A stretch of 64,000 nucleotides of DNA from Amoebophrya sp. A120 (taxonomy: Eukaryota; Protista; Dinoflagellata), in contig CAJINV010000003.1 in the NCBI GenBank assembly GCA_905178155.1, forward strand, positions 9,431,979-9,495,978, read 5' to 3'. Below, in pieces: positions 13,401 to 57,600 of this stretch. Numbering within the stretch: position 1 is the first letter of the stretch; every line of letters begins with the position of its first letter. The notes under the pieces were generated by a model, which was not told the DNA's origin, did not search any database, and was given only the letters and a program-made list of their open reading frames with translations. Both the position numbers and the translations under genes were made by a program.

Positions 13401-16400
13401 CCGGGGAATAAATGCAGGAGAAAGCCTATCTAAGGAGTACTTGTCAAGCCTGTATCGGAGCATTGCCGAGAATCCTATCACCCTCGATGACGACGACGAC
13501 AAGCGCGCCCGCATCGATTCGCAAAACGCAACTAGTCAAATGGCGAAAGTTGAGTTATTTTCCAAGGAGGTCGGCCTCGTAGTCGAGCGCTCGCAACGCG
13601 CTATCGAACAGCTTGAAAGCGATCGAGTAGAGGAGGACAACAGAACAGCCGACATGAGCGTTCTTAAGCGCACTGGGTCCGCCGTAGTTGAACACACAAC
13701 CGCTAACGGCCCAGAGACAGAGTCGGCGCGTTCGGCCGAGACGGTATTCCTAGTAGGTGGTACTGATGCTAGCGAAGTAGAAGAGGTAAGCACGACTCCA
13801 ATCGGAACTTCTTCGAGGGGCCCGCGGGAGCCTTCCCGCCTGTCGTCATCTCCTGGGAAGCGTTTATTTGTTTCGGAGAAGGAAGTTCCTTTCGGAGTAG
13901 CCGGCAAAGCGCTGTTCGAAGTTATCTGCTGGCCGCTTCTGGCGACGTTGTCTGTTCTTCTAGAAGCCACGAGCTGGGTGGAGCCGTCACAGGAATCCAG
14001 TAAAGGACCGAAGCAGCCTCTGGAGAACCGCGTGCTGCAGCTATGTGTCGAGGGGTTCCGCCATTGCGTTCGATTTAGTGCACGCCTTAGGCTGGAGACC
14101 GAGCGCGATGCATTTGTGTGTTCTCTCGCAAAATTCACCTACCTTGCAACGATCAAGGGCATTCAGCAAAAAAATATCGAGTGCATCAAAGCAATGCTCG
14201 AAATAGGCTTGTCGGAGGGAGACTTTCTTTCGTTTTCTTGGAGGCATGTTCTGCACTGCGTTTCCCACTTGGACCGACTGCAGATTATTCGGACGCAAAG
14301 GCCAGACGCCCATTCCTTCGAACAAGAGGGGGATCCGGGCCAAACCGTTTCGGCTACCACAGACGGACCATGTATAGTTGTCTTCTGGTTTATTTGTATT
14401 TTGTGAACTTGATGGCTTCTTCTACTGGCGTTTTCATTGTTGGTTCTGGTCTCATACTGCAAGCTCAGCTTTGCATCAGCTTCAACATTTATAAAAACGA
14501 AAATTGTTGTAGTTGTTGTTCTTGTGCGAACTAAGCATTCTAAGTATGCGTGCGTAATGTTTTCTCAGCGAATCATGACGTACAAGAAATCTACCAAAAA
14601 GTGCGCCGGAGTGCAGATTTGTCGGCGGCGACGAGTGACACTTCGCGCACTTCCTCCAGCCGTACAGCTACCGCTTTATCAAATGTAAAAATGTCTGGGT
14701 CTGGAAGAATCCAACTTGTCATGCTGATTTTGGATTCTAAAAAAATCTGTATTGCATGAGCAGCAAAGAGAGTCCGAATTTTGCAGCACGGAAAGCGCAT
14801 TTGTCATGCGGAATAGGCATCAGGAAGCCCTCTAAAAATCTGTGATGCTAGGGCATGCATCACAGACTTGAGGAGTCATGCAAAATGTGCATGACAAACC
14901 CGGCAATCTTCCAGACCCAGACATTTTTACATTTGATACGCTTCTCATCAGAACAAAACTGCGCGGCGCAAAATCGGAACTGGGGTGACAGGACTTGTGC
15001 GGCTTAGTGAAGAGGATCGCTCGGTGGAGGCGTTGAACTCCGAGGCTATACTTTCCCAGTTGAACACGAGCAACGCCATCGAGAACCTCTTCGAGAGAAG
15101 CGTCGCGCTGAACGCGAGGGGAATAGTTGACTTCGTGTCCGCGCTGTGTGAGGTGTCCGCTGACGAGATGAATCTTCACCAGAATGATGAGGATACGATC
15201 GACATCCGGACTTTCTCACTGCAGAAGTTGGTGGAAGTTGCTGACGCAAATATGTACTCGCGGATCCGGCTTGTTTGGCGCCGAATTTGGCTGGTGCTAT
15301 CCCAGCACTTCGGGGAAGTTTGCTCCCGTATCACGAATCCGAGCGTTTGTCTTTTCGCGCTCGACTCACTACGGCAGCTGATCTCAAAGTTTTTGGATCG
15401 TGATGAGTTGAGTAATTTCGAATTTCAAAGCGAGATGCTCAGACCGCTGGAGCTGGTACTCATGAACCCCTCGACGTCTATGAACGCAAAGCATTTCGCG
15501 ATTACTACTGTACGGGCTCTTATGGAAACACGGTCAGGAAACATCAAGTCCGGGTGGAGGTCGATTTTACAGATTTTGCAGGCTGCCACGCGAACAGGAG
15601 CGATGCGAATCTCCTCTAATGCAGGGGAGTACCAGCAGCAGCAGCAGCAACACACGCAGCAGCGGTCACTGTCACCAGCGGGGAGTGCAACATCTACAAA
15701 TCCTAGCGTAGTTGGTGGCGTAGCCTCACTGTCAGAGCGCCGAGCTTTCGTCCAGAAAGCATTCGCAGTGATGCAGCATATTGCTGAAAAACACCAGGAG
15801 CATTTCTTCGCGAACTTTTCAGAGGGAATGCAAGCTGTTGTCGCTTTCGCGCAGTGTCTTGTTCTACCAACGATAGAGGCCACCGAAGCCGTGCAGCTTA
15901 TCTTCCTGTTTGCCCGAGTGCTCGCCGCCCAGGAGAAGGCTCGAATAAATATTCTAGATACAAATGTAAAAACGAGACGGAGCACGAGCAGCGAACGCAG
16001 AGAAATTGACGAGACCGAAAGCAACAAGGTCCGCAGTAACCAGCCCGGATCGCGACACCACTCAGGGGATGACGCCGCTGACAGGGAAAATGGGGAGCGA
16101 AGTGCAATCGGTGCGGCGACCAGCGCGACGACGTCGATGAGCCCTGCTTCCTCGCGGAATCTCAGCCCCAGTGCACGGACGTATTGGCTTCCGCTCCTAC
16201 ATGGTTTATCTACATTGTCAGCTGATAGTCGAAGGGAAGTACGGTCCCGAGCTTTATCTGGATTATTCGAAGTACTGAAGGAGCACGGAGGGGAATGCTT
16301 CGACGCCGACACTTGGCAAGCGACATTTCGGGCCGTGCTCTTTCCTCTTTTCGACGATATTCAGCTCGAGCAGACGACTGGTACTGAGTTCGCCATGAAA

Positions 16401-17618
16401 AAGCAGGACGCTTGGTGTTTGGCTGCTCTCAGCAACTGCGTTGTCCTGATTGAAGCGCATTTCGAGGCGCTGGCTTTCGTGTTCGAGGATTTTCTTTCGG
16501 TTCTGGTAGGCATGGCGACTCACAGTTCGGAGTATATCGCGCGGCTTGGGGTTGAGGCTCTCAAACAGCTCATTGGAAAGACTGGCCACAAGTTGTCCGG
16601 TAATCACTGGGCGGTCGTCGCAAAGGGTGTGCAGGCTCTATTCCACAAAACGATGCCTGTTGCGATCCAGGATGATTTGTACTCCGCCCTAATGGCGGAG
16701 AAGGTCAAGGACAAGGGAAACAGTATCGACCGCACCGCTGCCGCTGGTAATAACAGCAATGTCGGCCACGAGGGAGCAAGAACAGCATTACCTACTACTG
16801 GGATAGGGATTGGAACGGCAGCAAGCGCTGCGCTCACTGCTCACCCGCAGCAACTACATCAGCCGGGGGACGTCGGCGGCGTTGACGAAGTGACCAAAGC
16901 TGTTGTAACTGGATGCGTGGTGCAGTTGCTCCTGATCGACTGTGTTCACAGTATCTTCCAAGGGCACGGGACAAGACTGCCTCGGGAAGTAGTGATCACG
17001 CTGCTAGCAGCACTTGAAGCTAGCTTCTCTTTCGCTCACGAATTCAACCAGAAGATCTCACTTCGCATGGAACTGAAGCGATTGGGTTTCATGCGGGACA
17101 TGCGCGACTTGCCGGGTCTGCTCAAGCAAGAGCGCGAGGGTCTCACGTGCTACTTGGGTATTCTTTTTGCGTTGAGCCAAATGGATCGCCTTGATGCCGA
17201 GTTGTGTGACAAGCTGATCTCGTGCGCCCGCTCAGTAATCCACAACTACGTCCGGAAAGAGAGGCAGATGCATAATATGATACGCGACGGGGATGACGAG
17301 GTGTACGCAGTCGAAATCGAGCGAGAGACAACGGGCCTGCAACCGATCATCACGCAAGTCATCTTGCAGAACCTTCTACACGCAGGGGAAAAACTTTATT
17401 CGAAGAGCAAGGAGGAAACGTCAGGTGAGTTGGATCGAAAGGGACCCGCTAGCGACAACGGAGAATCCAGTGTCCTCTCGGTCAAAGACATAGCGGACGC
17501 TGACGGCATTGGGATAAGAGAGCCGGGCCCGGGCGCAAACAGTAAAGACGAGTTGCGCAGTGAGATGGGAAGTAACCTTTTCAAGGCAGTGTGCTATCAA
17601 GATCAGAACCGCGTTTAG
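10483..17618 (+). CDS. SEC7: BIG/Sec7-family large ARF guanine-nucleotide exchange factor. Exons 10483-14371, 14569-~14676, ~14944-(>=17590); 3' end unresolved.
   Basis: Sec7 catalytic motif FRLPGEAQKIDRMMEKF and AYVLAFSLVMLQTDLHN. HUS box FLNYDCD. HDS-region motifs (FVCSLAKFT, KNIECIK, FSLQKLVEVADANM, RIRLVWRRIW, FALDSLRQL, NIKSGW, FRAVLFPLFD). The two long ORFs join in frame through a middle exon. Confidence 0.95.
14372..14568 (+). other. Canonical GT-AG intron of the Sec7 gene
   Basis: t|GTATAG ... tttctCAG|cg. Phases match (tcg aat cat gac) and the interior is AT-rich. Confidence 0.8.
14677..14938. mobile_element. MITE-like intronic element (introner) in the Sec7 coding sequence
   Basis: Perfect 32-bp TIR tatcaaatgtaaaaatgtctgggtctggaaga (14677-14708 / 14907-14938), flanked by direct repeat CGCTT (14672-14676 / 14939-14943). 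Removing 267 bp restores the frame. Confidence 0.92.
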
Positions 17619-18769
17619 CGATCTATTCTTGTCGCATAAAGCAAGACGTTGTATTTGTATGATGTTGAAGCGAGAACAAAGACGCGAGAGACGGCCTTGA
17701 GCCAGATCGTGTTCTACTTATACTAGCCGGGGGGAAGGAACTTCTATCCCGGCGACAAGACGGACGCACGGGGGGGAAAAAGCAGAATTAGACGGGGAGG
17801 TCAGAAGGCAGTAATGGCTCACGCGGAAAATTGTCCTGGGTCATTGTTTCTGTAGAGAAATCGCCGATACTAGAGGCTGGCGACTGCGGGCGCATTTTGT
17901 GTGAATTTCTCTCGTCGGGAGATTTTTTGCTGAACGGGTGGGGGCTGTACGACGGTGGATCTTGTCCCGTGTTTCAGTTCGCGCGCATTAGTTTGCGAGA
18001 TCTAGAAGGACGTGCGGGCATGTAGATCCAGCGCCCACCTTGCTGCTGAACCTGAAGCGTATAGCCTTGTGTCAGCCGGCTGAGCCGCCGGATGGGATTG
18101 CTGGCTACGGCAGAGGGCTTGCCTCCTTCTCTCTGATTGGTTAAAATGTGGTCCCGTATAGCGGCCATGGAGCGCGCCATCGCCGCCCCTTCGGGTGCCT
18201 GCCTGCTGTCGACTGCCTGCGGTCGGCGCTGCGGTGAGGCCAGGCGAGTGCGGCGGCTCCTTCTTTACGTGTGAAACTGCTTGCAGTCGAGTCCCGGGCG
18301 TGTATTTGTTTGTGTATACAGATGCGGGCGCGCAACAAGCTGGCATGTCCGGGCCGAATTTCAGCGAATCTTGTTCAGCCCATGCGTGGACCCCGCTAGA
18401 AGTATGCTGCTTTGTGAACGGGCTGCCTTTTGGGGACTATGCGCGGCGGCCCGCCTTCTACCGCGCTTTCGTTTTTGAGATCCGAAGGCATTTGCGACCA
18501 CTTAGGTCCGCCGCGCGCCCTGATGCCTGGGCGCCGTTCTGCGAGCAGCAACCGAGATAGGCAGCAGCGCGCGCCGAATCTTGTGGTGCCCAAACATAGC
18601 GCCACTTCCCACTGCCCCGCCCCCAGAGTGTCAGCAGCCGGCTAGCTTTGCGCGCATTCGGAAGGGCGCGGCGTGAAATTTACTGGCGGCTTCAGCATTG
18701 GGACCCTCGCAAGACGTCTGCTCTTGCCTCGCTCTTTTGATATAGTATTTAACGAAGACGTAACGAAAA

Positions 18770-19250
18770 GCAAAAAGCAAGCGCGCCAGCCTCGTGAAGC
18801 CCGCCCGCGTGCTATAGTCCCGACGTTTTTCGGCTTTTCGGGGCGTTCGGAACCGGGGTCATGCCGCTCAGTCTAGCTTCGGGCCAGGAGATTTCTAAAT
18901 TTGCAATAAGTTGCTTGGTTTTATTTTCAGTGGCCGCCACGCCACGCGGTAAAGTATTACCAACCTCCGGGGCGCGGGGGGCCCGGAAAGGCTGGGACGC
19001 TGCGAAGGCCACGGCAATCGTGATCGTGGCACCCGCGCGCCCTCTGCCCGCCTCCTGGCGTTGTTTTCAGTTAGTGGCAGTAGTTGTGAGGGCAAGAGGG
19101 GCGCAGGAGCTGCCTACTGGGCGGCCGGCGTTTGCCCACTTTGTTGCGGCCACGGCCACCCATGACGATTTGCATGCGTCGGCCCCCCATCCCGGGGGGG
19201 ACAAAAAATCGGAACGACCTCACAACTTCCGCCCCGGCGGCTATGTTTGG
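18770..19250 (+). mobile_element. 3' partial copy of the same family
   Basis: Ends gacctcacaacttccgccccggcggctatgtttgg. Confidence 0.7.
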
Positions 19251-20522
19251 CACTAGACCCCCAGCGTGTTGGTGTGCAATGTTGCTCGAATCGGGCGTAT
19301 TCTTCCTCGCAACGCAATTCGGAAATACGGCGCGCGCCTGCGTGTACTAAGGTGGTAGCTTTGGATTTGGTCTTGATATGTGCCCCACTTTGTTTCCCCT
19401 TTTGGCGGACCTTTGTTTGAGTAGTAGCCATGAACTCCGCGCTGTCGTTCGGGAGGTGCTTCTGCAAAACGTCGCGCCGCTGCTGCAGCTCTGAAGAAAG
19501 TCTGTGAAGGTGCGGCCCATCGAGCCAGTTCCAGTTCTTGCGACATCGCTCGACTTTGAACCGACGGGACGACCGCAATCCTTCGCGCTCCGCGCGATTT
19601 TGCATTTGTGCTGTTCAGTTCTTTTATACTCGCGACGCCAGTCAGGTTGGAGCAAACGCGGTAGACTACGAACCAACGAAACCAGTAGAGCGAAATAGGG
19701 AACAGCTACGGCATGCCTAGTCTGTGTGGTGTACTTATGCGCATGTTCATCTAGTGCCCTGACGTGAGATGTTGTTTTCTTTTCTGCTGCACCACGGAGC
19801 TCTTCTGTACTGCCCGAAGCACGGCTGCGCGTGTTCGCTGTCAGCCTAGAGAGTTAGAGGGCTCTTCGAATGAAAAGGACGGCAAGAAGCCATATCTCCA
19901 GTGGCGCGCAAGCCGTCGGCGTAGCGGACAAAAGAATCCAGCCGATGCACGCGCCGACGGTCCGAGTCCACACTTCGTAGGTGTTCACAGCTGGGATAGC
20001 GGAAGAATGGCCGTGTCTGCAGTACGATGTCCCGCGTACGGGTTCTGCCATGCTAGATCGAGCACATGATCATGGATGACATTGCCAAGAACGCGACCTG
20101 CTTTCGCTTTTATCTCTGTATCGCGAACGCCTCCTGCCGCATCGTGACAGAACGAGTTCGATCTTAGATCCATTGCAAGGCCGCAACCAATGCAAAACAA
20201 TAGACAAAGCACCTTCGTATTTCTAGTTGTTCCTGCCGAAGATGGCAGACAGCCTCTTTATATCAGGATTCGGTGTATGTTGTGCGTCCCCGGGGGAGAT
20301 GCCGGGTTACCAAGGTCCACTGGATTTCTCTTCTTGCATTCGTTTGCCACACAACCAAAAGAGAAAAATGCAATCCAGATATTTTTATTGCACATGTACA
20401 CGCCAAAAGCAAAAGATTAATGCGAGCTGGCACGCGTTGGCGTTCTCTGAATTCGCGGCCGAGGCCAAGAGTGTTCCAAGTATGTGCTTATTACATGTGC
20501 TACTGCTTATATGTGCCTATAT

Positions 20523-21156
20523 AGTGTGAGATCACGAGCGTTCTAGTCGTGCGGCTTTTTTGCCACGTCCCACACAAAATGCTTGGGAGTTTCCAATCGG
20601 CCGGAAGTGCTTTTACATTTACCAAGCGGCCGGGGCTTTGATAGCAAGCAAGCCTAGTGGTATTCTATGGTATGTCGCTTCGTAAAACGATGCAAGGGGG
20701 CCGGCAAAAGGGGCGCCCTTCTGAGGCGCCTACCGCCTGGGCTTCTGGCGGTTTGAGGCGCCCAGAAAAGGACACCAAAAAAGCACCAGCCCGAGAAAAG
20801 CACCGGATCCGCATGGTGTTCGCCTCATTTCGGCCCACGCCCGGGCCTCGCAAAGGACGCCACCAAAGTCGGCTGCTTCAGGGCGGTACTGAAGGCCAGA
20901 GGCCGCGTTTTCTTATTAACAAGGAAACGGAAAACAAAAAAAGCGCGCCCCGCCAAAAAGTGAAAGCGAGTCCGTATGCTATTGGCCCGATTCCGGTCTT
21001 CCAAGGGGCCGGCTCTTGTGGGGGCCTAGTGGGGGCCTTAGCATGTAGGGAAGGCTTTCCTTTTCGAACCCGCAGGGGTGGCAACTTTGGGCCGTTATTT
21101 TTGCCCGCCGGTGCTGTGCCTTCGTGCAATCATAGCATTACGCCCGGCGGCATACT
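20523..21156 (+). mobile_element. Diverged copy of the same family
   Basis: gtgagatcacgagcgttctag start, aatcggccggaag, aaaaggggcgcccttctgaggcgcc, and cgcccggcgg near the end. Confidence 0.65.
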
Positions 21157-21262
21157 GGCCATAGCGGTTGCGTCGCTTGTTGGCTTCAAGTCAGAAAGAC
21201 CGCTGCGACGTTATTACCCCCGCGAAAAGGCGGCTAGTGTTGGCATTGCCAGGCTCCTGGAG

Positions 21263-21414
21263 TGCGGTTGTTGGCTCCTTTTTGTTTTTCTCTCCGGCGC
21301 CGGACGTCGTTACGGTGTCAGTCGGGTTTTCTGTGTTTATGTTTGGCATTGTGGAGGTCTGTGAGCAGCCGCTGCGGGAGTGAAAGTCGCTGAGTGGTGG
21401 TCTGCGAGAGTGAT
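21263..21414. repeat. Dispersed repeat, copy 1 (copy 2 at 41345-41492)
   Basis: 47-bp identical block tgcggttgttggctcc...ccggacgtcg plus about 100 bp of similar sequence. Confidence 0.85.
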
Positions 21415-21857
21415 AAGTTGAAACGCTTGACGTCGCCAGCTATTTCCAAAAGGAAGATATTACGTATAATGGAGCGATAGCACCACTCACCTTAAGCTTA
21501 AAAAGTCAAAAATTTTTTGATAATGTATTTGCACTGCAAAAGCCATCATCTCAAAGACTATACCGAGACGGCTGTTGTTGGGTGCGATCGGGGGCGAACC
21601 TGATCAGGTGAGGCGGCTTTTGAAGGTATGAGATTGAAAATAGCTATCGAAGCGTCAGGATCGAAATCCACAGAGTTGAAATGATTTAGCATGCAAAAGC
21701 CAGTGTTGCAGGGATGGCAGGCGAGGCAGATTGTGAACCTGTTTAGCGTTTGGGATAGAACTGCTAAAGTAGTATGACAAAAGCGGTCTTCTGCGTCCAA
21801 ACAGGATGACAAATTGGACTCCGGTGCTCGGAAAATTTTTCATGTGCCGTTTGATAT

Positions 21858-22584
21858 GTAGTGAGGTCACCGAACGGTTCTAACCGGGGAGTTTTTTTGC
21901 CATCTCCCGTGAAAAACGACCGGCAGTTTTCAATCGGCCGGAAGCGTTTTTTGACATAAAAGATTTCCATTTATCAATCGGTCGGGGCTTTGCCGTCAAA
22001 CAAGCCCGGGCGGATTCTATCGGTTCCCGATTGATAAAACGACGCAAGGGAGCCGCCAAAAGGGGCGCCCTTCTGAGGCGCCCAGCGCACCTATTTCCAT
22101 CGATTTGGGGCGCCCAAAAAGGGGCGCGCAAAAAGCTTGCCCAAAATCAGAACAGCGAAACAGCATGGCACGGCCGCGATTTCGGAGCATTTTGGGCGGC
22201 CGCGAAAGCGGCCGCCTTTTCGCCGGTTTCAGAGCCTGGGAAGCTTTGCAAAAAGCGCCGGAGGGAAAAATAAAAACGCGAAAAAGAGAAAGCGCCCCGG
22301 ACGCGCAAAGCCAATCCGCATGCTATGGGCCCGATTTTTCTTCGCTTTTTGGGCGCCCCCCGTGGCACCCGGATCGGCTCCATAGCATGGGGGCTAGCTC
22401 GCGGAAAGGAATTTCGGAGATTTGCCAAAAGTTGCGATGTTTATCGAGCGGCCGCCATACCGTGCGGCCTAACGTTACTCACGGCGGTATGGCGAACCCA
22501 GAAAAAGCAAGGCCGCGGCCAAGTCGATGGCCGGCAAGAAAACGCCCACGACCTCACTACCTCCGCCCCGGCGGCTATATTTGG
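21858..22584 (+). mobile_element. Non-autonomous Helentron/Helitron2-like element, full-length copy
   Basis: 5' GTAGTGAGGTC (21858), subterminal GACCTCACTAC (22550-22560), hairpin CCGCC-cc-GGCGG, then ctatattt. Collinear with 38440-39172. Confidence 0.8.
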
Positions 22585-22729
22585 TAATTGGGCATCCAAC
22601 TGGTATCGGTTTTATGCATGGGTAGGCACTAGAAGAAATGCAAATGTCAGTCAGCAAAATGATCTAGGTAACAAATCAAAAAGAAAAAAGCGCCGGCCCC
22701 AATCCCAACACAAAGCGCCGGCACGCCCA

Positions 22730-23095: not shown

Positions 23096-23139
23096 TGGAT
23101 TGGACCAGACGAGTAGCGGCAGCGCGGACCGTTGCGGCC

Positions 23140-23470: not shown

Positions 23471-23504
23471 GTATGCAACGAGACAAAGTCCATGGATTAT
23501 GGTG

Positions 23505-39172: not shown

Positions 39173-39463
39173 TAGTTAGGTGAGTAGAAATCGTCCTCGG
39201 ACCAGACGGGCCGGCCGGCAGGCGTCGGTTTGCATGCTGGCCCGAGAGAATGTGGCCGCCATCCCTAAAGCGGAAGAAGGCGCGGCGAATATCGGCGAGC
39301 AGCAAGCGCGTCGCCTTCCCCTTCTTCGGCCTACTTTATATGTTTTTGCCCCTGGCTTTTATCTTTTGTTTGTGGGTGCGCTTAGTTTTGACTTTAAGGT
39401 GAATGCCCGGGGGACTTAGGCCGGATCATCCCCTTCAAGTGAAGAGCATTCCCCTCGAGGGCG

Positions 39464-41344: not shown

Positions 41345-41492
41345 TGCGGTTGTTGGCTCCTTTTTGTTTTTCTCTCCGGCGCCGGACGTCGGCACAAGTT
41401 CGAGTTTTCTGAATTTACGTTTGGCATTGCGGAGGTCTGTGAGCAGCCTCTGTGAGAGCGAAAGTCGCTGAGCGAGGGTCGGCGAGAGTGAT
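41345..41492. repeat. Dispersed repeat, copy 2
   Basis: Matches 21263-21414. Confidence 0.85.
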
Positions 41493-45650: not shown

Positions 45651-48600
45651 TTGACACAGAAGGGACCAGATGCGTTTGGGCAGGAGGAGCGCATTCGCTT
45701 TCTCGCAGACACAAATCAGAGCAGTTCAAATGAAAGCGACTTTTCGCTCGCAAATACTTCGAGTGGCTCTCTTGGCCCGCAGTCCTGGAACGATGAGGTC
45801 GCGCAATTATCCCTGGGTGGCTCCAGTACGACTGACGCGCGCTTTCCCGTGGCACACTTCGGCGGGCCTTCCGGTGGTTTTCGGTCCGTGACAGCCGAGC
45901 ACCATCGAGGACTAGGGCCTCTGGGAGAATTTCGGAATCGCCTGCATGCCGAGGTGCGAACAGGGTGCTTGCGGGCTCGAGTGCAATCAGCTGCTGCGCT
46001 GCGCGATAGCAGTTTGGAGAATCTTACAACTGGGGACACAGTTTTACCTTCTAATTTTCCTGCGTCTAGTACTACGTCGAACTATCCGTATGCGCAGATA
46101 TCTGGCACGAATAGTGCCATTTGGCGGCTTAAGAAAAGCACTACAGGAGAGAAACGGGTGACAGGAGCTTCCGCACATGCGCGCCGTGGTGTGCTTGGGC
46201 ACTCCACCCCCGTAGCATATTCACGCCCAAACATCGAAGCGCGTGAATGCGCCAGCCGGGATGTTGCGCGGCTTTCTCATTCCACCTCCAGCAATGAAGA
46301 CCTGCAGACCAAGGCAGAACAAGAAATCAAAGCAGCTGTCATCCCAAGCAACTGCTCATCAGAAGAAGTAAGGCAAATTTTCCAAAAACCGAGAAACAGA
46401 AGTTTGACCGAGCAAGATCAACCGCACGCACGTGCATTTCCTTTTTCAGTTTCACAAACCGATGGAGGTGTTGCTCCAGGAACCCCCGGGAGCCAACCTT
46501 TGCTGCGAAAGTTGGGGCACGACTTCGACGAATGCGACAACTGGTCGGTTTTCGGGCTGAACCGCCGAAAGACACGTTCTGGCGGAGCCACTTCCAGCTT
46601 GCCGTTCAGCTGGGGCGGTTTGCAGCGGAGTGGACAGCAGGATCAACCGCCGGACGTGCAGTACTTGTTTGTGCATTGATTTCGTTCCTCGGACGTTACG
46701 TGACTGCGGAACTGAGCAGCGCCATTTCTTGTATGTTTAAGTACATGAATTGACCGAAAAGTGGCCGTCCCAGCACTTTTCACACGCTTGGGCGGGGGCG
46801 TGTGCAAAGTCGGACGGAGAAAAGTAAGTTCCGTTCCACGGTTTATCCACAGAGCGGGTGAAAAGCAAAAGAGGTACGGGTGAAAAGCAAAAGAGGTACG
46901 GCAGGATTTGTTACGCCGCTCTAGTAAAGCCGTTTGCAATCCTCGGGTAAATTTCTTTCAGAATGAAAAGTGGCATGCGAGCAGGACTGGCTAGTAACTC
47001 TGCGCCCACAGAAAGCCGACTATCGCTTCTAGGGCGCGCTAGTACTTGTTGTAGAGGGACGAGCTTTAATGTCGTGAATCCGCTTCAACAATCCAAATTC
47101 AAGGGGATGCCCTTCCATGCCCCGTGGTGTGTGGGACGGCAGCGGTTCGGTGCGATTTTTTGGACCACGTCGCCCGGCCCTCGGGTCACATTCCCGGCCC
47201 AGATAGTCGCTGATGTAGTACGGATCCAGCTGGCGTCGACGCTTCTGTCGTGCCCCTACGGCCGCGCACACGGTTTCGTTCGCGACACAGAGAGTCTGCG
47301 GTATTGGGTGCCCAGAGGCAAGGACACTGATGGCAGCGGCCCGGTATGGACGTAGTCTTTGTCAGAACGAGCTGACCAGCGCGACCAAGGAGGCCCGCTG
47401 CGATTAGGAAAAGTGAAGCGGCCAGGATGGGCTGCCTGCCTGTCTCAGAATACACGGGCAGCGGCGGAGGCAGGTTCGCGCGACTTGGGGAGCCCACTTA
47501 GTGCCTGGCGTTCTGTCTTGGATGGGTGTGCTCCGCCTGCTGCCGCAGGTGGCGCAGATTTTTTTGCGTCGACGGCCAGTCGCAAAGTGTTGGGGCCGAC
47601 TACCGTCGTGGGGCCCGAACGGGTGCTGAATTCGTAGGCCCGTGCTGGCCGGCTGTTCGTCGAGTCTTGGGAAGTTTCTGTCCGAATTTTCAACAAGGCC
47701 AAGGCGCTTTCCCATCCTTTGAAGGCCGGCGCCACCGCCAGTGCGTCGCCTCCCCTTGCCCTTGCGGCGTTGTCGCGTGTTTCTCTGGTTTTCTTTGAAA
47801 CTCAGGAAAAGCTGGGCCGAGTCTGGGTCTTCGGAGGTCCGTTGCTATGCTTCCGAGCATTTGAGGGGCGTTTGCGCCGCTGCCGCTCTTTGCGAATTGA
47901 AGAACGAAGGTGTAAGGTTCAAGGCCCGAACTACACGGAGCGCCCCCGCCTCTTTTTCTACCCCCGTCCTTTCGATCTGCCCGCGCCCTACTATTGCTGC
48001 TCCGCGAGGTTTCAGGGGTTGGGCCGCCCCGTTCCGCGCGCATGTCTTTGCCCGCGTAAGTTAGTCCGTGGCGGCCGGCATTGTGTTTGTGGCGTCGGCA
48101 CTTTCCTCAGCAGAGTTGCGTCCTGTGTCTTCGGGGCGAAGGTCGTTGCCCTGTCTTAGTCTCCTTCCAAATTTCGGGCACTGTGCGAGACATTTCGTTT
48201 TTGCTGAAAGCTTACAGAGAGCGGACGGAATTTGCCACCGCGCGCGGGGCCCGTTCTTCCAAAGCCTATCCGGGCTAGCGGCGGGCGTTGTAATATGTTC
48301 CGCGCCCGGCAGCCGAGTGCGTGGCTCCGGGTCCTCTTTGTAGCCAGCAAACAAAGTTCTTTAGGTGCGATTGCCAAAAAGGGAGCCGGCCTCTTCCTCT
48401 GCGCGTTTCAGGGTGTTCAAGTTTTGATAACGTCATCCAACATTCCGCCGCTGCGGGTATTTCATTCTAGGAGGGCGGGGCAATATGGTTTCATCCAGTA
48501 AGCGCGCAGGATATAGGCTCACCAGCTGCACCAGGCACGTTAACCTTGCCCGTGCTTCTGGTGTGGACCTCAGCACGCGCAACCGCAATGTCTTCGCGCT

Positions 48601-51600
48601 ACGTGTTGGTTCCCGTAAATTTCGGGGCCTTCACCCACATTATGTATGATTATGATTATGTATAAGTATGTCATGAGGTAGTACAACTATAAATAATTGG
48701 CAGGCAGTGTGCGTTCTAGTGCTAGAGGAATCAATGATAAACGGCATCAGGTACTGTATCTCAATCGAGCGGAATCTTCAAGCTCGCCTTCGGCTTGCCA
48801 CAACCAGCGTATGCTTACGAGCCGCTGAGGTGTTAAATCTTCACAATTTGGCTAGGCTCTTTTGCGCCAAGACTTGAACACGTGCATACATCAGGCACAG
48901 ACGCCCGGCTAGCGAAAGCGTGAAGGAGAAAAATGCGAGGACGGAACGAAACACCAAGGTTGCGCGCGGGCCCCGCTCTCATCCTTCCTCTAGCCAGGAG
49001 GCGCAGGGATGCGTGGGGTCGAGGCTTTCGTGCGGGCGGTGATGGTTCGCGCGGTCTTGTTTACAAGGATCGACCTCCGGGCCCGACCATTATAGCAAGG
49101 AACCTGGGCTGCACCGCAGGGCTTTGGCCAGATCCTGAAGCACGATCGACGTGCGCGGTGCGTGGCGTGTTTTTTTGGAGAGGCCCAGGACCCCGCGGGA
49201 AAGTTTGGGACTTTTTTGGCCGAGGCCGCCCCTTCCACTATCTGGGAAGGCCTCTTTCGAGTGCCCCAGCAAAGTGCGGCCTCGCCTTATTTCCCGGGAT
49301 CCATCCGGAGCTCGTGGCGGGGCCCGTTGTTCACGGGGGCTCCGGATATGTCGAAGCCGCACCCCGGGCGCCTTCTGGTATCATTCACGGACTACATGCG
49401 CTGCAGCTGAAACAAACAGGCGACGGCGGTGCTCGCTGGTTCCAGCCTGCGGGCGCCTGCCACTTCCTTGTTCTGTTTTCCGCGGAAGGGTCAATCGCAA
49501 AGGCCGGCGCGCGGGCCGGATAGATAGAAGTAGGGTACCAAGTTTGCATTATTTTGTTGCCCGTGCGCCCTGCCTAGCGTCGCTGGTTTTGTGTGCATGT
49601 TGCCACTCGCGAGAACTGCAACTGCCTGCGCGCCGGGCTATGAAGCAGTGGCGCATGACTGCAACGCGTACGCGTAGTTTGTGTGGTCTGGGATGGGTCA
49701 ATGACAAAGCGAGAATGTGCCACGCCCACGTCTTGCATGAGCTGCATTATGCGATCGCGCGTTGCGACTACAGGCATTTGTCAGTGCCGTGGGCCATCAA
49801 GGGCTCCCTGAGAAATTTTAAGTTTCGATAATGCTGGAAGAGGAAGATTCAATAGTACCTGAGCGCGCCATATTGTTTCCACCCTGCTAGCGAGGGCTTT
49901 GTAGCCTCCTCCTCCGCAAACGGAATGCTCTGCCTGTGGGACGTAGCGCAAAGCGGGTCCTACTCTCCTCTGCTCACCAAATGGAACGCAGGCACGAGGC
50001 AGATAAATAGCATCTGCTTCCTGCCACCATCGGGATCCACCATGAGCCTGGTTAGCGCGGACGCTGCAGGTGCCGTGAAGCTCTGGACTCTGCCAGATCC
50101 CACACAAGAGATAGGGTGAGTTTTCAAATATAGTTAGTAACTTTAGTTTATATGTCGTGTACCAAGTATGTATAACTCCATTCCTACGTTTTGACCTCCT
50201 GCTGCACATCGCATCATATGCGTGTTCCGCAGCTCCCCTGCGTTGTTTCGTCCTTCTTGATCTACTAGAGCACAGTAGCAACTCCCTCCGTTTATTGATG
50301 GCTTCGTCGTCTCCATAAACAGTTCCTGGCTCGCCTGATAGTTTCCCAGCTCTGCCTCCCAACTATCAAAGAAGCTTGTGCTCGCCTTCTATTTCCGAAC
50401 AGAACGCGAGTTTGCCCATCTTGCAATGCGGCCGCAGCCCAGGCGTGAATCAGCGGAAGGCCCTACATCGTCTGCAGTGAAACGATGCGAATCTTGATCG
50501 CTCTCGCTGTTTGCCGGTTGTGTGCAGAGTCCCAGCGCTATCTTGCACGAAGATGGATCATGGATGGAATGCGTAGAGTGGCGCTTTTGCCTATGACTCA
50601 ATCCCTTGCTCGGTAGGCAGGCGCAGAGCTGCGCGTCTTTCGCGACGTGGCACGCGAGCACGAATGGCGGAAAGCATTTGGCGGGGCCGCCCCAAAGGTA
50701 TCCGAGTAGATCAGGCACCCTGGCCAGACCAGGTGGGCCAGGTACTGTAGACCAGGTACCCGGTGCGCCGGGTTGTCAGCAACCACGTCTGCCGCGCACT
50801 CCGGCCGTCTGACGCCCGTTCTGGCCGTCTGACGCCGCCCGGCGGCCGTTTGGCGCCAGGTTTGGCGGCCTGAACAGGAAGCGCATCCTCATAAGTACAT
50901 AGAAATAGCTAATCAGCTAATACGTTTGCAGGTACTACGAGATCGAGACCGACCCGGAAGGCTCTGAGCGATGGGGCCGGGAGTACTTTAAAAAACTCGG
51001 CGAGCGGCCGTGGCAGCGGGTGCAAGAGATTACCGACGGGGAGGCGCGCTTGATGAAGAGGTGCCCCGTCAAAAGCGTGCACTCGCAAAAGCTATCGCAG
51101 TCAACGACGCAGCTGCTGTTAAGAGTGGCCTCTTCTGTTAACGCACTCAGCGGGGAACGTTTCAAATAGAAGTCTACCAATATTTGCAGTGGCCCAAGCT
51201 TTCAGAGCGTCCGTAGCTTGTCAGCGGTGGAGCCATCTGGGCCGCGCGTTCCTGCGATGGCCCAGGGAGCAGCGATTTCGGGGTGGAAAATGATCTGAAG
51301 CGCGGCGCGCCATAGGGCTCTGTTTTTATTTCGATCCGCCCGGCTGCGGCCTGCTATGTTCCGTAAAGAGCGGCGCGCCGCTCTTTGTTTTCACCATGCG
51401 CGGGGGGCAGCGCGTTCTATCAGCTTGCTAAGATTGGGCGGCGTCCCCAAGGTTTGCCAGAACTCGGGGCCGGGCGAAGCCCCGCGGCGCCTTTGAGAAA
51501 AGGCGGGGAAGGGTTTCCCGGAATGGTCTATGAAACAAATTCAGGTGGGCGGCCGCCGCCAGATTTGCCCTCCTGCTAGACCCCGGCTGACAAAATGCCA

Positions 51601-54600
51601 CAAGAACGAAAGCCGAAGCGCCCGCCGCCCGCCGGACCACTCTCCTTAGCTTTTTTCGAAACGTCGCGCCGCCCGGCTAAAGAGAGGCTGGCGCGGCCGG
51701 AAGGCTCCCCCGGCTGTGGCACAACCTCGGCCACCGCTCGCCGACATTCATCTGCCTCCGCGCCGCGCCAGGAATGCCCGCGGGCCGGCCTCGTGATTGC
51801 CCTGCCATGCCGCGTTTGCTCAGTTTGCCAGCTGCGTAGCCCTTGCCTGCGCAGGGGCCCGGGCCCTGGAGAAAGGAAAAGTAATTTGTTGAGCCTCGGA
51901 AAAACCCTAGAAGTTCGCGCGTGAACATCTTGGACAAACCCGAAAAAGTGTCGGAAGGTAGGGGCGAGGCTAAAGCCTGGGAAAGCCTGCCGCAGGGAAA
52001 AGCTTTGATTGGCAGGAAAGTGGATCTTTGGCACTACCACGCCGCTAAGTTTGCTACTTATTCGCAGCAGGAAAACCGGAGTTCGAATCCCGGGAGCTGA
52101 AGGGCTTCTAGCGGGGCTCCGAAGTGTCCTACGCCTGGATCTTTTTACAATAATTGCCGCGGGTCGGAAGCCCCGCCCCGCGCGGGGAGGTCGCGGGCTG
52201 GAGTCTTTTTCGGAGGTGCGAGGACCCCCGCGGGGCAAGCTTTTTCGCGTTCCGGCAGTGCGGCGCGCAGCAGGTTCGCCCGATCCCCCGCGGGGGCTTC
52301 TGCGGGGTGGGCGTGCCACGAACGCGGGGGCCGCATATCGCATAGCCCCCTGGCACGGCCTGCGAGCCCCCCGGGCCCCACGGGGCGTGGCTTTTTGAGG
52401 TATTACGCCAGCGTCGGGCGGCATGAAAACAAAAGCCCGGCAACGGCAAGCCGGGCGGCCCCCGCCCTCCTGGCGTGGCTGTTCGCGGGAGCGCCGCTGC
52501 TCCTCCGTAAAAGCAGCAGGCAAGCAAGCGGCGAGCGTGAAGTCGGGCAGGGGCGAGATTCATTCCGGAAAGCACCGGGGAGAATATTGCTGGGCATCCG
52601 CTTGGCCACAGGCTGGCCCGCTTCGGGGCGATGTTGACCGCCCGAGGCCCGCGGCCGTGTCGGGTGGAGGGCCGAAGGAACATCGCGTCGGCGGAACTGT
52701 TTGGCAAGGTTTTGGCGGGGGCCTGGATAGGTCGCGGGGGGATTTTCCGGAAGGCCCGGGAAGAAGTTCCGGCATGAGGGCGCTCCGGACAATTTTTCCG
52801 GAAAGCGACTGCGCCCCATATCTTCTGGCATTGCTTGCGCATTTCCCTCGCGGGCTGCCCCCGCCAATACAGAAAGATCGCAAAGGGCGCTCGGCTGCGC
52901 TCTCCAGTGCCAGAGGACTGGGGACCCCGCCGAGGCGCTTGGAGAATTTGGCAAGGTTTCGGAAACAATTCCCCGGCGAACGCGTTGGCAGATGTCCCAT
53001 TTGTAAGGCTGACAGCACACGAGGACGGGTCCGTTCTGCTGTATGAGGGAAGCGCCTCCCGCTTTGCCAGAAAGAGCGCCTATCTTGTCAGTTCAGGCCA
53101 AGCAGTGTACTCAGTTCGCTTCAGTCCCGGCATCCCGCATATGTTTGCGGCTGGCACCCGTGACAAGAAGATTACGGTTTTTGATGCTCGGGAACAAGGC
53201 AAAAAACCGTGCACGCAGATCAAAGTGGGCTGCCCCGTCAGCTGCATTCGCTGGCGACCCCTGGCGAATGATCCTCACGTCCTTGCTACGTGCAGCAATA
53301 TTATGGACCATCAAATTCTTGTCTGGGATATGAGTCGCAAGGTCGTTGTACTCGGCAAAACCCGCACGGCGAAAGCATGCTTATTGATGTCAAATGCCAG
53401 AAGCGCGCCTATGCGTTTCCACTTAGGTTGACAAACGAGGAGAAATCCGAGGCCGTGCTCCGGAAGGGGGAACGAAAACCGCGAGGAAAGGGGTGGGGAA
53501 GTTGGGTAAAAAAGGCAAAGGCAGCACTAGGGTTTGTTTTTACGTGTCTGAACCGAGCTGAAGGCTTAGGGCACTGCATTCCTGCGCCAGGCGCTAGGCA
53601 CTGCCGCCGCGGCTAGTTTCCGGGCGAGCGGTTTGCTAAATCCACCGGAATTGGTGCCACCCGCCCCTCCGCGTGGCCCTCCTAATGTTGCCCGCGGGCG
53701 CGGAGCGGCCGGGAGGATTGAACCCCCGCAAGTGCCGCGACACTGGCAGTGCATGCTGGCTGGGGTTTGTGCGCGCCCCCCGGCCGCTTTTTGCCGGTGC
53801 CCGCTCCCGTGCCTATGGTATAGTCACGAGGGGCAAAGCAAAGGGCCTCCAGGACGCGCGCTACGCGACCGGCAGCTAGCCACGCTTTTGCGGCCGCCCG
53901 GCCCAGGCGCTTTGCCTGTGCCGCCCCCCCATTCCGAAGAAACGGTGCCGGCCGCACCAGCTCCCCGCCCCCGGCGGGCTTTTTGTCCGGTAGCGTTGGC
54001 GCGCCTCCTTCGCGCAGGGCAGTGCAAGCGCCACCACCCCTGCGGCCGGCCTTGCTTTTTTCGTTCGCCATGTCGCCCAGTGCCAAAGAAGCCTGCGGCG
54101 GGCCTGTTTTCTTTCGCAGCTCATACTGGGCCACTGCAGCGCGACCGAAGTCGCTTGCTTCGCCACTTCGCCGATTATGAAAATCTCGGCCGGCGCACGT
54201 TCCGGAAAGCCTCTCCAAAGATGGCGCCCCCGCTTTTCGGGTCAGGCGGCGGGCGCGCTCCGTTTGTCTGCGCCTTCGGATGCCGGCGAGGGGGCATGCT
54301 TGCGGGGCGGGGAAAGCAAGCGGGGGACGCTCGGCAGCGGGGTGCCCGACTGACAAGGCTAGCGCCTGAGGTGCGACAGGGCGTGTGTCGGGTCAGTTTG
54401 CGGGCTAGCCTGCGGGAGTGGATTTGGGCGGGGCGGTGGCCCGGGGCCGGCGGGTAGGGTTTTGGGGCCATGCTGCCGTGTCGTCATCAGGGCAGGGAAG
54501 CGCGGTCGGCTTGCTGCCGGGGCCCCCGTACGTCCTTCGTTTGGGGCGGCTCGCTCCGCAGCTGGTGGGCGGTCGAGCTTGGCTTAAGGCGATCCCTATG

Positions 54601-57600
54601 GTATCAGGACCAGGATGCTGAAAAAATACGTACCGCGCAAACCAGATAGGCCCCCGCAACCGAGACAAAAGGGGGCAATCGGGCGATCCGCCCGGCCCGG
54701 GAGGTTCGCTTCCGTCGTGATTTCGCGGACTCGCGTTAGGCAGTCGCTTTTCCAGAAAAATCTGTCGCAGAAACAGTGCGGCGCCCTGCTCCTATGTATT
54801 GACGCCGCCGCTGTTGGCAGGCCCAACCCGGGTAGGAGCCAGCGGCGTGCCTGGCGCCGTCGTCGTTGATTGGTGCAACTGCTGAACGAATGGCAATCCG
54901 CAAGCACAAAAACCCTGCGTGCGTGTCTCGGTGTGTTGTGTGTTGTGGGGCACCTGCGTGCTTTCGTGACCGTGCCGCGTCGCTTTGGCCGGTTTTCCAC
55001 CTTATAACGAACATGCGAGCAACTTCCCTTCCCGTCTTTGTTTTCAATTCACATCGAAAGAGCGAGTTCGTGGGCGACTTCTTTTGGGCATCTCCGGACC
55101 ATATTGTAAGCATGAGCGCGACTCCGACTCATTTATTTTTTTCTCTGTTTATCTTTATTGCTCTCAGGTAGATTGGGTCGCGGCCGCAGCTCCTCGCCTG
55201 CCGGCGCGCGAGAGAAACATCGAGCAAGCGGAAGCAGCACGATGGGCCATGCGATTTCAGTTGCAGAGAAGCACAGAGGAGAGAAGCAGGGGGGCGCCGT
55301 GGGAGTGCGCAGAGTTGCAGCGCCTGCTGCCTGCCACCTGGGAGTGCGTCTGGCTGCTGCCACAGTAGCCAGGATCCTGGTGGGCACGCAGCAGACTCTT
55401 TCTAGGCTGACTCGCTGCTGCTTTCTTGGGCTCTTAATTAAATGGCCAGCTTATCGCCCTGTGGCAGATTGCCCCTGCAAAGAGCCAGCGACTATGGGAA
55501 GCGCCTGGCTGGGACGTCAACCAAAGCAGCGAACCTACATGGCTCGTCGCGCGCCTTGGTTCTAGCGCCTGAGGTGCCGGCCCCCCGCCGCCGATCGGCC
55601 GGCGGCTGCCCCGGGTTTTGCGTTTTTTCAGGCGGACGACCCGGGGCGGGCTTCTGAGGTAGGCATCCCCTAGTTTTTCGCTAAATTGATGAGGGGCCCG
55701 GGCCGATTCCCGGGCCCCGCGTGCTTGCCGGCCCAGGCCGAGATTTTAATTTGGGCCGGCCCCATTGCCCCCGGGGCCCCCTAGCCGCGGATCGAAAGGG
55801 GCCTCCGAAGTGGCCGGCGGGGCCGCCCATGCGTGCTCTGTTGCAGGCTGGGACCGATTGCGCCAGCCCTTCGTGAGGTCGGTGGCAGCAGGAAAAGTTT
55901 TGGTGAGGCTTTGGGAGTGTTCGCGGCTCCTTGGCCGCCAAAAAAAAAGGCGGGACAATTACACTCCAGCTACATTCGAGCGAAGCCCCGGCCGAAATCC
56001 GGCAAATCGGCCAAAGGCCCGGCCAAGTCGTTGCCAGCTAGTACATTCCCGCGAGGCAGTATTGAAACAGGCGCACAGCGATGCACCGGATACGTGGAAA
56101 AGGGGAAGAATTTCGTCCCGGGACCCGTCGGGCACCCTCGGGCGCCCCGAGGGACCCAATTCAGATCAGCGCCCGGCAGTGTACCTGAAGGCGGGCGGCA
56201 CTTTTTTCGCCGCCCCAGGCGGCGAAGGAGACAAAGGGCCGGAAGGTAGCAGAATCGGAAGCCGGGGGCCCGGCCGGCATTTCTTGAAAGGGCCGGCGTG
56301 GTTTGCAATAGATACCGGGCCCAGTGGCGCGGCGGCGCTTGCAATACCGGGGTCGGGAAGCGGGACACGCCGCGCGCGGGCCAGGGGCGCTCCGAAGCCA
56401 CGCAGCTGCCGCAACATGGGGGCGCGTGGCGCCCGGCCTGCTCGGTTCCGTCGCGCGCCCGGAGTGGTTGGCTTGGCTGGTTCCGGGGAGGTCGTAGAAT
56501 TCCACAGAGCTTCGCAATTTTCAGCAAGAATAGCCGGGCCCGAGGGCGGCGCGTGAAGGAGTGCCGCAAAAAGTGGAGCTGGGACACTTGGGGGGGCGCG
56601 GCCACAGAGCGCCCTCCTCCTTCGCCTGTTGAAGACCGGGGGCGACCGGTTGGCGCCGAAATTGCTCCGCAGAAGAGAATGCCGGGCGGCGAGCTCCTTC
56701 GCGAGCAGTAGCGATTCGCGCTCGTGCTTGGCGCGCGCCCGCACGAGGCGCGTTCTCATCCTCCCGCGAACAGGCCATACAAGGATGCGCGTGACAACTC
56801 GCGCCGGCGTGCGGCGCAACCTATCGAACCGTGCCCGCGCTTCGGTATCGGCATCGCCTACCGGGCGCGATTTAGTAGGGGGCGCCTCGATCCAGCGCAG
56901 TTTTGCGCCCCTGGCCTCACACACACGCAGCCGCGCCCCTTTGGAAATAATTCGGCGGGCTACCCCCCGACACCCACAGCGAAGAAAAGGCACTTGAACG
57001 AGGGGGGGGCGTCGAGGTGTTGGACCCGCGGGGTGAAGGCGCCCGGCGCCCCAGGAAAGGGCCGCGCCCGTTACGGGTGATACTTTCTTGCCCAGTGGGG
57101 CGTCATGACGCGTATGGCGAAGTAAGGGCAGGAGGTAGTGGCGCAACACGAAGGGGCCAGCGCAGCAGCTGCGTTGCAGTCTTGCGCGCGTTTTTTATCC
57201 CCTGCCGCATCCTATCGGATAGTATCCCTAGGGATAGTATCCCTACTAGGGGGCGGACCGCAGGTAGACGACAATCTGTAGCTTCCCGGTCGCACGTCTT
57301 CTGTTGTTTGTGATTTACGCGTGCATGTTGTTCTTGAGACGTGCCTTGCTTGGTGCACGGAACATGCTGGCGCCGCTTTTCAATCATACTCGATCTCCCG
57401 CGCCGAAGGCAAGAAGGCGGCCGCGCTAGTGCCGCCATCGCCGCGATTTTATCGAGTCGATTGCATACATCATTACTTCACTTTGCTTCAGGTGTCGACG
57501 GGAAAGGATTCGACGATACAACTTCACTCGCTTCGTGTAGGTTCTCACGAACCCTGGCGACACTTTTCCAACTGCAAAGCGGGCTGCGCTGGAAGCCAAG

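Follow-up and report, generated by a model that had tools for sequence, protein, structure and literature searches.

Every non-canonical intron mapped in a window of 64,000 nt, the whole stretch of Amoebophrya sp. A120 DNA analyzed here, is made up of an element, whose ends are of the TA(T/C)...ATA type, and exactly 5 nt more; these 5 nt likely represent a single copy of a 5-bp target duplication that has since decayed. This fixed +5 rule holds in the window (probability about 0.95; n = 13 introns in one 64-kb window) and is probably followed by the majority of such introns genome-wide in A120. The constant offset may be new, as no fixed rule was found in the literature, published figures aside; according to passages of Farhat et al. 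(2021; PMC7789003), splice sites vary in position with respect to the hairpin, and the intron border is unknown.

Assignment to a Published Intron Class

Three proteins encoded in the window (P0001, P0121, and P0122) match annotated A120 proteins at 100% identity. This identity makes it virtually certain that the window is A120 DNA and that its inserts belong to the published class of A120 non-canonical introns, the introners of Farhat et al. (2021). The preliminary description had linked the inserts to Amoebophrya correctly; its remark that the families may be undescribed is weak, since that paper clustered 1,954 A120 families and the public gene models already splice out the window introns. 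Nineteen introns were mapped within the window, six with GT-AG ends and 13 non-canonical (seven by RNA, six by annotated protein), so that 13/19 (68%) are non-GT-AG, compared with the 65–67% given for A120 in passages of Farhat et al. (2021; PMC7789003). Seven of the 13 (W1, W3, S3, G1, G2, G5, and G6) were missing from the earlier list of inserts A–F. A junction at 59/60, whose 5′ end lies outside the window, is omitted from all counts. Rfam covariance models (group I/II introns or other RNAs) gave no match to the window at the gathering score.

Transcript and Annotation Evidence

The WDR24 coding region (45253–59147, + strand, as for all features below; 1229 aa) contains seven introns, and one contig in each of the RNA-type runs X3 and X4 (4365 and 4373 nt) unites all eight exons, with pieces that sum exactly. 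The RNA-derived protein is identical to annotated P0122, and annotation and RNA agree at the protein level at 7/7 junctions. These contigs define the GT-AG introns W2 (46661–48750, 2090 nt, with a 5-nt direct repeat and a weak end stem, z −2.0), W4 (50116–50931), and W7 (55106–57491, 2386 nt), which bears out the earlier statement that ordinary introns occur in the same genes as the inserts. They also define W1 (45353–45627, 275 nt, with TAT-N7-AAA at both ends), W3 (48816–49877, 1062 nt), E (51119–53011, 1893 nt, TTA..TAA + 5), and F (53329–55011 or 53328–55010, 1683 nt). The same two contigs skip insert D (42807–43782, 976 nt; six equivalent registers, none of them GT-AG) in the mL43 coding region (42463–44155). 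In the GT31 galactosyltransferase coding region (PF01762; 30808–36468, start codon uncertain), RNA-type contigs of X3 and X4 lack B (31489–34172 or 31488–34171, 2684 nt, from contigs with loose ends), which has an interior of GC-rich tandem repeats and a 1-nt direct repeat, and C (34403–36221, 1819 nt), a 34403–36216 element with perfect 96-nt inverted ends plus 5 nt, whose removal is also seen in X5. Seven non-canonical introns are thus exactly absent from RNA-type contigs, while in the DNA-type run X1 a contig over 41988–59600 retains all inserts, with zero differences to the window. The RNA type of X3–X5 is an automated guess, backed by the absence of GT-AG introns, and the three runs represent one sample as contigs only, from which rare variants are dropped.

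The remaining six non-canonical introns rest on annotation, which was possibly built from the same RNA data. The Sec7/BIG ARF-GEF coding region (10483–19494, 2241 aa, P0001) holds A (14677–14943, sliding to 14672–14938; 267 nt), in which one copy of the perfect 5-bp repeat CGCTT adds to a 262-nt element whose inverted ends are perfect over 32 nt, and S3 (17595–19383, 1789 nt, perfect 5-bp repeat TGTGC), whose junction motif is conserved in the A25 orthologue. Its GT-AG intron S1 (14372–14601) was initially read with its acceptor at another AG, 14568; the annotation has 14601. The X3 word share of 0.93 over 10500–17600 is consistent with loss of S1 and A and was kept out of the counts. The 3′ part of the P0121 gene (60–7804; a 1463-aa annotated A120 protein with no Pfam on record) hosts the GT-AG introns G3 (1503–2576) and G4 (2652–2888) and the non-canonical introns G1 (212–434, 223 nt, element 212–429 + 5), G2 (520–1458, 939 nt, with a TAT start and an element end of ATG, giving a G·U pair, + 5), G5 (2969–4750, 1782 nt, inverted ends matching at 18/20), and G6 (4844–7457, 2614 nt, TAT..ATA + 5).

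The six inserts first described in Sec7/BIG, GT31, mL43, and WDR24 exist and interrupt these genes, and their absence from transcripts or annotated protein shows that they are spliced rather than dead alleles. The junctions proposed for D and E were correct and their removal restores the frame, as had been claimed for all, whereas those of B, C, and F were 5–9 nt off and that of A enclosed the element alone. Removal of 14677–14938 shifts the frame, the annotated protein needing 267 nt (element plus one 5-nt repeat), and so does removal of 34403–36216 at C, where RNA removes 1819 nt. For B the length of 2684 nt was right, but the RNA position (31488/9–34171/2) lies 5–6 nt to the left; for F the proposed in-frame GT-AG pair (53334–55019) is replaced by 53328/9–55010/1. 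Direct repeats of 2–5 nt, said to be carried by most inserts, occur in 4/6: at the true junctions they measure 5 nt at A, 1 at B, 4 at C, 5 at D, 4 at E, and 1 at F. Measured against the 3–5 nt expected of A120 introners, and with the added introns included, the repeat is 4–5 nt at A, S3, C, D, and E and 1–2 nt at B, F, W1, and W3, and there is none at the annotated G1 junction.

The Element + 5 Rule

The rule was derived on eight non-canonical introns and then tried on five further ones. When tail lengths of 0–12 were tried, 5 fitted 8/8 of the former (D also fits 7) and none of the canonical introns tested; the chance of a fit is 0.0006–0.0018 per junction and jointly about 1e-21 for the seven RNA junctions, with a fixed tail and a motif chosen post hoc. 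All five later introns fit in length: the fit is strict for S3, G5, and G6, G1 takes the −1 register, and G2 has its ATG end. G5 was predicted before the test and then confirmed by the annotated protein. It was the one pair (18/20) taken forward from a blind TA..ATA scan in which a threshold of at least 13/20 matches gave many chance pairs; G6 (13/20) was present among them and was not singled out. Across the 26 element ends, positions 1–3 are T (25/26), A (24/26), and T (21/26), and A occurs 14, 17, and 15 times at positions 11–13, within an A-rich stretch at 11–14, so the window elements carry the known A120 introner motif of TAT, 7 nt, and an A-run.

The data somewhat favor cutting 1 nt ahead of the element and 4 nt beyond it. 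This −1/+4 register comes from one annotated junction, that of G1, where the protein is compatible only with 211–433 (GT..GG); it is the sole junction that separates the two registers, and a GT-preferring aligner could err there by one base. G stands at +1 in only 6/13 non-canonical introns. A further proposal, an obligatory match of tail positions 3 and 5 to the five upstream bases, did not hold up: in the seven RNA cases it described 13/14 versus 7/21 positions (post hoc, Fisher 0.0006), yet G1, G2, G5, and G6 matched at only 2/4 and 2/4.

Probable Transposon Origin

The probable ancestors of the inserts are non-autonomous DNA transposons that had TA...TA ends and duplicated 5 bp of target. 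The target repeat is perfect (5/5) at A and S3 and 4/5 at C, E, and G5, and these five combine terminal inverted repeats (TIRs) and a target duplication without a transposase, in the manner of MITEs; overall, 39/65 tail bases are identical to the upstream five. Against the 8–20 nt of inverted repeat expected between the two ends of A120 introners, the repeats here are perfect over at least 8 nt in register in A, C, and S3, imperfect in G5, G6, D, E, W1, W3, and G1, and near chance in B, F, and G2. The intronic ORFs scanned had no Pfam match at E 0.01. The end of C recurs elsewhere in the DNA run X1 (contig depths up to 750, summed 3174, versus 44.8), and among the elements repetition in the genome was shown for C alone; a 22-nt piece of this end had no match in the metagenomes scanned, and pairwise comparison of nine elements gave no long mutual match among the first 80 rows listed. 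No empty site was found when Sec7 was aligned with metagenomes: among 79 loci the best segment reached 53% identity, with no close relative.

Insertion would duplicate 5 bp, and removal of the element with one copy would restore the original message; this should work at any site, in any frame, and in either orientation, since the ends are symmetric. New copies would therefore do almost no harm and could spread. As a copy ages, its interior, its long inverted repeat, and the duplicated bases on the intron side would decay, while the terminal TA(T/C)/ATA and its spacing would be kept.

Recognition and Excision

Three other accounts of the junctions were weighed. Ordinary GT/GC-AG sites near the stems could in principle remove the inserts, as in-frame pairs lie within 12/30 nt of all nine junctions examined; yet neither a GT-AG nor a GC-AG register exists at 6/7 RNA junctions and 6/6 annotated ones, and at B, C, E, and F splicing ignores in-frame GT-AG pairs that lie close by (at F, 5/8 nt away), in agreement with the non-GT-AG excision first proposed. 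The true junction of E is readable as GC-AG (51115–53007), and E could be an ordinary GC-AG intron; for the other 12/13, which have no register with U2-type ends, this account is refuted, and as a general explanation it is scarcely credible. A hairpin with a direct repeat is a recipe for template switching. The joins might be reverse-transcriptase jumps across such hairpins or reflect insert-free DNA alleles, the genes being dead or unspliced, and one unspliced contig of low depth (about 6.5 versus 40–78) does run across the 3′ end of D. This is very improbable, given that B, W1, and F carry merely a 1-nt repeat, that every join gives back one open frame with conserved motifs, that coverage inside E and F is zero in X3/X4, and that the DNA-type run contains none of the joins. 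It is also unlikely that the strength of RNA pairing between the ends sets the borders by itself, without a sequence signal. End duplexes reach z ≤ −2.2 against dinucleotide shuffles in 10/13 introns, and the end pairing reported earlier stands for A, C, E, and D (z −12.2, −13.3, −5.1, and −3.5). However, B (−1.6), F (+0.2), and G2 (0.0) pair no better than shuffled sequence, the ends of W1 are unpaired in the whole-intron fold, and two GT-AG introns also reach −2.0 and −2.5. Because the motif and the 5-nt offset are kept in all of these non-canonical introns, the ends are not set by pairing strength on its own, contrary to the earlier proposal.

As to the machinery, the candidate we rate highest, at close to even odds, is a modified host spliceosome that reads both element ends at a fixed distance. 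Judging from G1, the −1/+4 cut would give a donor N-U-A-Y, resembling canonical G-U-A-Y with a relaxed +1, and an acceptor without AG, located by how far it lies from the stem end. The roles of U1 and of the AG signal would pass to the stem or to a protein that binds both ends. The alternation of GT-AG and non-canonical introns within the WDR24 mRNA counts for the spliceosome. In A120, 83/89 spliceosomal proteins were found and U1 was not detected, according to passages of Farhat et al. (2021; PMC7789003). U1 is present in a GT-AG strain. T occupies +2 in each of the nine most frequent non-canonical classes of A120, in tallies that share the risk of GT-preferring aligner bias. The donors of A and C lie inside a perfect 32- or 96-bp duplex, which speaks against a spliceosome, and these two introns also lack an evident branch point or pyrimidine tract. 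The symmetric motifs at both ends, suited to a dimeric protein, also count against it. Rather less probable is a route with the same elements and the same ruler in which a nuclease bound to the stem end would make its cuts at fixed offsets, after which the exons would be joined by an RNA ligase, for example RTCB. It would accommodate the lack of AG and of a fixed +1 base, the disregard of in-frame GT-AG pairs, the donors buried in long duplexes, and the symmetric ends. Such a route has been proposed for euglenid introns, which are released as circles and keep 5 nt without pairing on the 3′ side of the paired motif, and it has been shown for SOS splicing in animals, where excision is ITR-triggered and RTCB-dependent. 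Against it, SOS splicing is described as imprecise with several isoforms, while one joined form is seen per junction here (a weak point, since contigs drop rare variants), N-U-A-Y resembles canonical donors, and 15% of canonical A120 introns have the same repeat layout.

Comparison With Known Systems

As in the A120 introns described in passages of Farhat et al. (2021; PMC7789003), the inverted ends start with TAT and have an A-run at 11–13, direct repeats reach 5 nt, and the introns are mixed with GT-AG introns and lack a transposase. Those authors analyzed introns of 40–1000 bp, whereas 8/13 non-canonical introns here exceed 1 kb, and they place the repeats 1–5 nt from the splice sites, whereas the window always shows element + 5, even in decayed copies with a 1-nt repeat. 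Passages of Gozashti et al. (2025; PMC12130899) list an A120 family, fam38, as Ginger-like with a "5-bp TSD, TA/TA termini"; compared by description, without consensus sequences, the window elements share its TA termini, 5-bp duplication, and TIR DNA transposon class. That feature is noted for one 5-copy family, however, while automated duplications of other A120 families are 2–6, and those passages contain no fixed splice offset.

Euglenid nonconventional introns (PMC11282704) likewise show end-pairing, non-GT-AG borders, duplication-like repeats, and a paired motif ending at −6 (in the element-start register). Their CAG at +4..6 pairs with CTG at −8..−6, with 8 nt in total beyond the motif pair, whereas the window has TA(T/C)/ATA with 5 nt; their circles have been shown, in an unrelated lineage, whereas the window introns are known from joined exons only. 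In SOS splicing (PMC12779559), inverted-repeat DNA transposons also leave mRNA without GT-AG, but imprecisely, in many isoforms, and dependent on AKAP17A/CAAP1/RTCB in animals, whereas the window shows one in-frame join per site that survives repeat decay; that paper makes no mention of Amoebophrya. Aureococcus/Micromonas introners and Fritillaria non-canonical introns are similarly MITE-derived, with TIRs and a target duplication. Aureococcus elements keep canonical splice motifs, and Fritillaria introns, spliced by an adapted spliceosome, have fixed AG-AC/AT ends; in the window neither terminal dinucleotide is fixed.

Implications

A fixed offset bears on how A120 can splice out two thirds of its introns with neither GT-AG ends nor a detectable U1. 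Tentatively, with the odds a little against it, one code may serve the "borderless" non-canonical introns that A120 has in the tens of thousands: symmetric transposon ends would be read and cut at −1/+4, without G+1, AG, or U1, so that 5-bp-duplication insertions in either orientation would be erased without a scar. By this reading, a precise route of splicing, guided by the ends, would have turned a DNA transposon into the main intron class of this genome. If true, the element + 5 rule would pin down the substrate, account for the tolerance of insertions, and provide a rule for gene finding. It would also name exact intron ends for lariat or circle sequencing, which would tell a rewired spliceosome apart from a nuclease-ligase route.

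Introns and Their Removal From Transcripts

Nineteen introns were mapped in the window, six GT-AG and 13 of other types. The GT-AG introns are W2, W4, and W7 of the WDR24 gene, mapped from RNA, and S1 of the Sec7 gene and G3 and G4 of the gene for the annotated protein P0121, mapped from annotation. Besides the inserts of a preliminary description (A in Sec7, B and C in GT31, D in mL43, E and F in WDR24), the others include introns overlooked there, i.e., W1 and W3 (from RNA), S3 (from the annotated protein P0001), and G1, G2, G5, and G6 (from P0121). A GT-AG or GC-AG register is absent in 12 of the 13, E being readable as GC-AG, and in-frame GT-AG pairs near B, C, E, and F are unused.

Over the 751 residues scored, the exon that opens Sec7 matches the 2241-amino-acid Amoebophrya sp. 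A120 protein P0001 at 100% identity; two further genes match A120 proteins P0121 and P0122 at 100%, and the gene labels were upheld (Sec7/BIG domains, PF01762, mL43, WDR24). The five genes identified are all encoded on the + strand; a same-strand layout has been reported for Amoebophrya gene clusters. A 379-codon open frame without a Pfam match at 61724-62863 (+) is likely another gene.

The proposal that the inserts are spliced out was borne out by RNA-type contigs that lack them, with frames open, and by retention of the inserts in sequencing run X1. One contig each from runs X3 and X4, which are a single sample and RNA by guess, joins the eight WDR24 exons (41600-59600 examined); its pieces sum to the record with 0 letters between them, and the skipped lengths are 275, 2090, 1062, 816, 1893, 1683, and 2386 nt. 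In mL43, 976 nt are skipped in these runs (intron D). A 17,944-nt X1 contig over 41988-59600 retains every insert with 0 differences. A joint from 50529 to 58063 with a 22-nt side, present in X1 too, was discarded as a repeat artefact. In GT31 (34075-34530 examined), 31487 is joined to 34172 across B (X3, X4) and 34403 to 36223 across C (X3, X4, and run X5), with loose ends. Reading frames across the joins are open and conserved, and the RNA at F encodes WDMR, which fits VWDVRR of human WDR24. Against the RNA-type contigs, the preliminary description had placed D and E correctly; its junction for B was off by 5-6 nt, its length for C was 1814 nt where 1819 nt is required, and its GT-AG pair for F is not the real junction. 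For A, its 14677-14938 coincides with the element and falls short as an intron, for which the protein needs 267 nt.

WDR24 as read from the RNA and annotated P0122 agree at 1229/1229 residues; public gene models therefore already splice the inserts, which makes the annotation reasonably trustworthy for genes mapped without RNA contigs. Low-depth X3 and X4 contigs at 43277-43809 keep the 3' part of D across its junction, reflecting partial retention or slow splicing. About 820 nt before the mL43 start codon (41643-42462) belong to the same RNA-type contig and make up a long 5' leader. Two similar stretches of ~130 nt occur at 21270-21420 and at 41350-41480; the latter ends shortly before the mL43 transcript.

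A Constant Offset Between Element and Intron

Junctions slide within direct repeats, so that intron ends seem arbitrary. A single register, with the intron starting at TA(T/C) and ending 5 nt past ATA (TTA and TAA as the variant at E), accommodates A, B, C, D, W1, W3, E, and F; the intron is thus the element plus a 5-nt tail. Among tail lengths of 0-12, 5 fits 8/8 (D fits 7 as well). The canonical introns W2, W4, W7, and S1 were tested too, and 5 fits none of them. Random position pairs meet the rule at 0.0006-0.0018, jointly ~1e-21 for seven RNA junctions, with the motif picked after the junctions were seen and TAT being the published A120 motif.

Later tests came from five non-GT-AG introns. 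S3 obeys the rule, with a perfect 5-bp repeat and a junction motif kept in the A25 orthologue; G5 was predicted by a blind scan, recorded in advance, and borne out by P0121; G6 fits strictly and G2 with ATG in place of ATA; and G1 has the predicted length of 223 nt, its annotated residue requiring a cut one base leftward. Because the first eight and the five later introns all fit in length, intron length minus element length is 5 in 13/13, and a constant offset is well supported in the window. At 50-60, junction 59/60 of annotated P0121, whose 5' end lies beyond the window, is preceded by TAA and 5 nt.

The cut may fall at the element start and 5 nt past its end (0/+5) or one base leftward (-1/+4). 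The last tail base equals the base before the element in 11 of 13 introns, so the two registers yield the same mRNA there; at G2 both give the same protein. G1 (211-434) is the only junction where they differ in residue (annotated Ile, otherwise Ser), and the annotation by itself favours -1/+4 at this site. Donors under -1/+4 read N-U-A-Y, with G in 6/13, and the acceptor is not fixed. N-U-A-Y resembles canonical donors. In the available part of Table S4 (PMC7789003), T occupies +2 in 9/9 of the commonest A120 non-canonical classes, a tally compatible with -1/+4, though aligner bias is possible.

End Pairing and a Probable Transposon Origin

The end-duplex z-scores against shuffles are strongest for C (-13.3), A (-12.2), G5 (-6.5), and E (-5.1), intermediate for D (-3.5), W3 (-3.4), G1, S3, and W1 (-2.4 each), and G6 (-2.2), and weakest for B (-1.6), G2 (0.0), and F (+0.2). 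Folded in full, the W1 intron does not outdo its shuffles, and its two ends are not brought together. Since motif and spacing outlast lost pairing, how strongly the ends pair is not by itself the signal, and the earlier suggestion that RNA pairing may define intron ends is not supported as it stood; a short terminal stem combined with sequence is the likelier signal.

Flanking 5-bp repeats are perfect at A and S3 and match at 4/5 in C, E, and G5, and tail bases equal the five bases before the element at 39/65 positions over the 13 introns. Judged from sequence, these matches have the pattern expected of a decaying target duplication. Excision of the element with one duplication copy would give back the message as it was before insertion, whatever the frame or orientation. 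A hairpin with a direct repeat is a recipe for template switching. The C end recurs in several high-depth X1 contigs (depth up to 750, summed 3174, flank 44.8), a depth that is not a copy number. Scanned intronic ORFs gave no Pfam match, element interiors are unrelated among the matches listed and often consist of tandem repeats, and no empty insertion site was found in a Sec7 alignment against metagenomes (79 loci).

The interior of B (31640-34060) consists almost entirely of GC-rich tandem repeats (10-, 18-, 25-, and 32-mers) and holds the window's single N. The 96-nt end of C contains an internal palindrome (34422-34472), and the interior of C (34540-36110) carries inverted subterminal repeats of the ATGTATG type, resembling foldback elements. 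An intergenic dispersed repeat family (20634-20753, 21857-22587, 38439-39175, 61050-61308; copies 73-85% alike) also has short pieces inside S3. The GT-AG intron W2 (46661-48750) has a 5-nt direct repeat and a weak bulged end stem (z -2.0) in a layout close to that of the non-canonical introns; it could be such an element, with flanks that by chance read GT-AG.

Excision Machinery and Relation to the Published Class

A modified spliceosome would remove the non-canonical introns, a reading that we rank first at a probability of 0.45 because A120 has an almost complete spliceosome in which U1 was not detected (PMC7789003), U1 is present in a GT-AG strain, and Fritillaria offers a precedent, as far as the available portions of these sources show. 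A nuclease-ligase route that would excise the inserts instead is a close second and a tentative possibility: long perfect duplexes cover the donor, AG is absent at the acceptor, the ends are symmetric, and there are euglenid and SOS precedents in the accessible parts of PMC11282704 and PMC12779559.

The portions available of Farhat et al. (2021; PMC7789003) report that >60% of introns are non-canonical, with inverted repeats of 8-20 nt, direct repeats of 3-5 nt, a TAT-N7-AAA motif, and 1,954 families among analysed introns of 40-1000 bp; splice sites are called "variable" relative to the hairpin, with repeats 1-5 nt from the sites, and a single example has 5-bp repeats. In Gozashti et al. (2025; PMC12130899), one family with a 5-bp duplication and TA termini appears among 41 of 58 A120 rows and in a term search. 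Literature searches, with 10.1101/2024.09.05.611473 and PMC11453091 also covered, turned up no paper that gives one constant offset for young and decayed copies alike, though logos (Fig. 3, Figs S19-S23) or other papers may imply one. The inserts are real, and their class is already known and already annotated. The constant element + 5 offset, not found in the literature as far as it was accessible, renders the excision mechanism testable.
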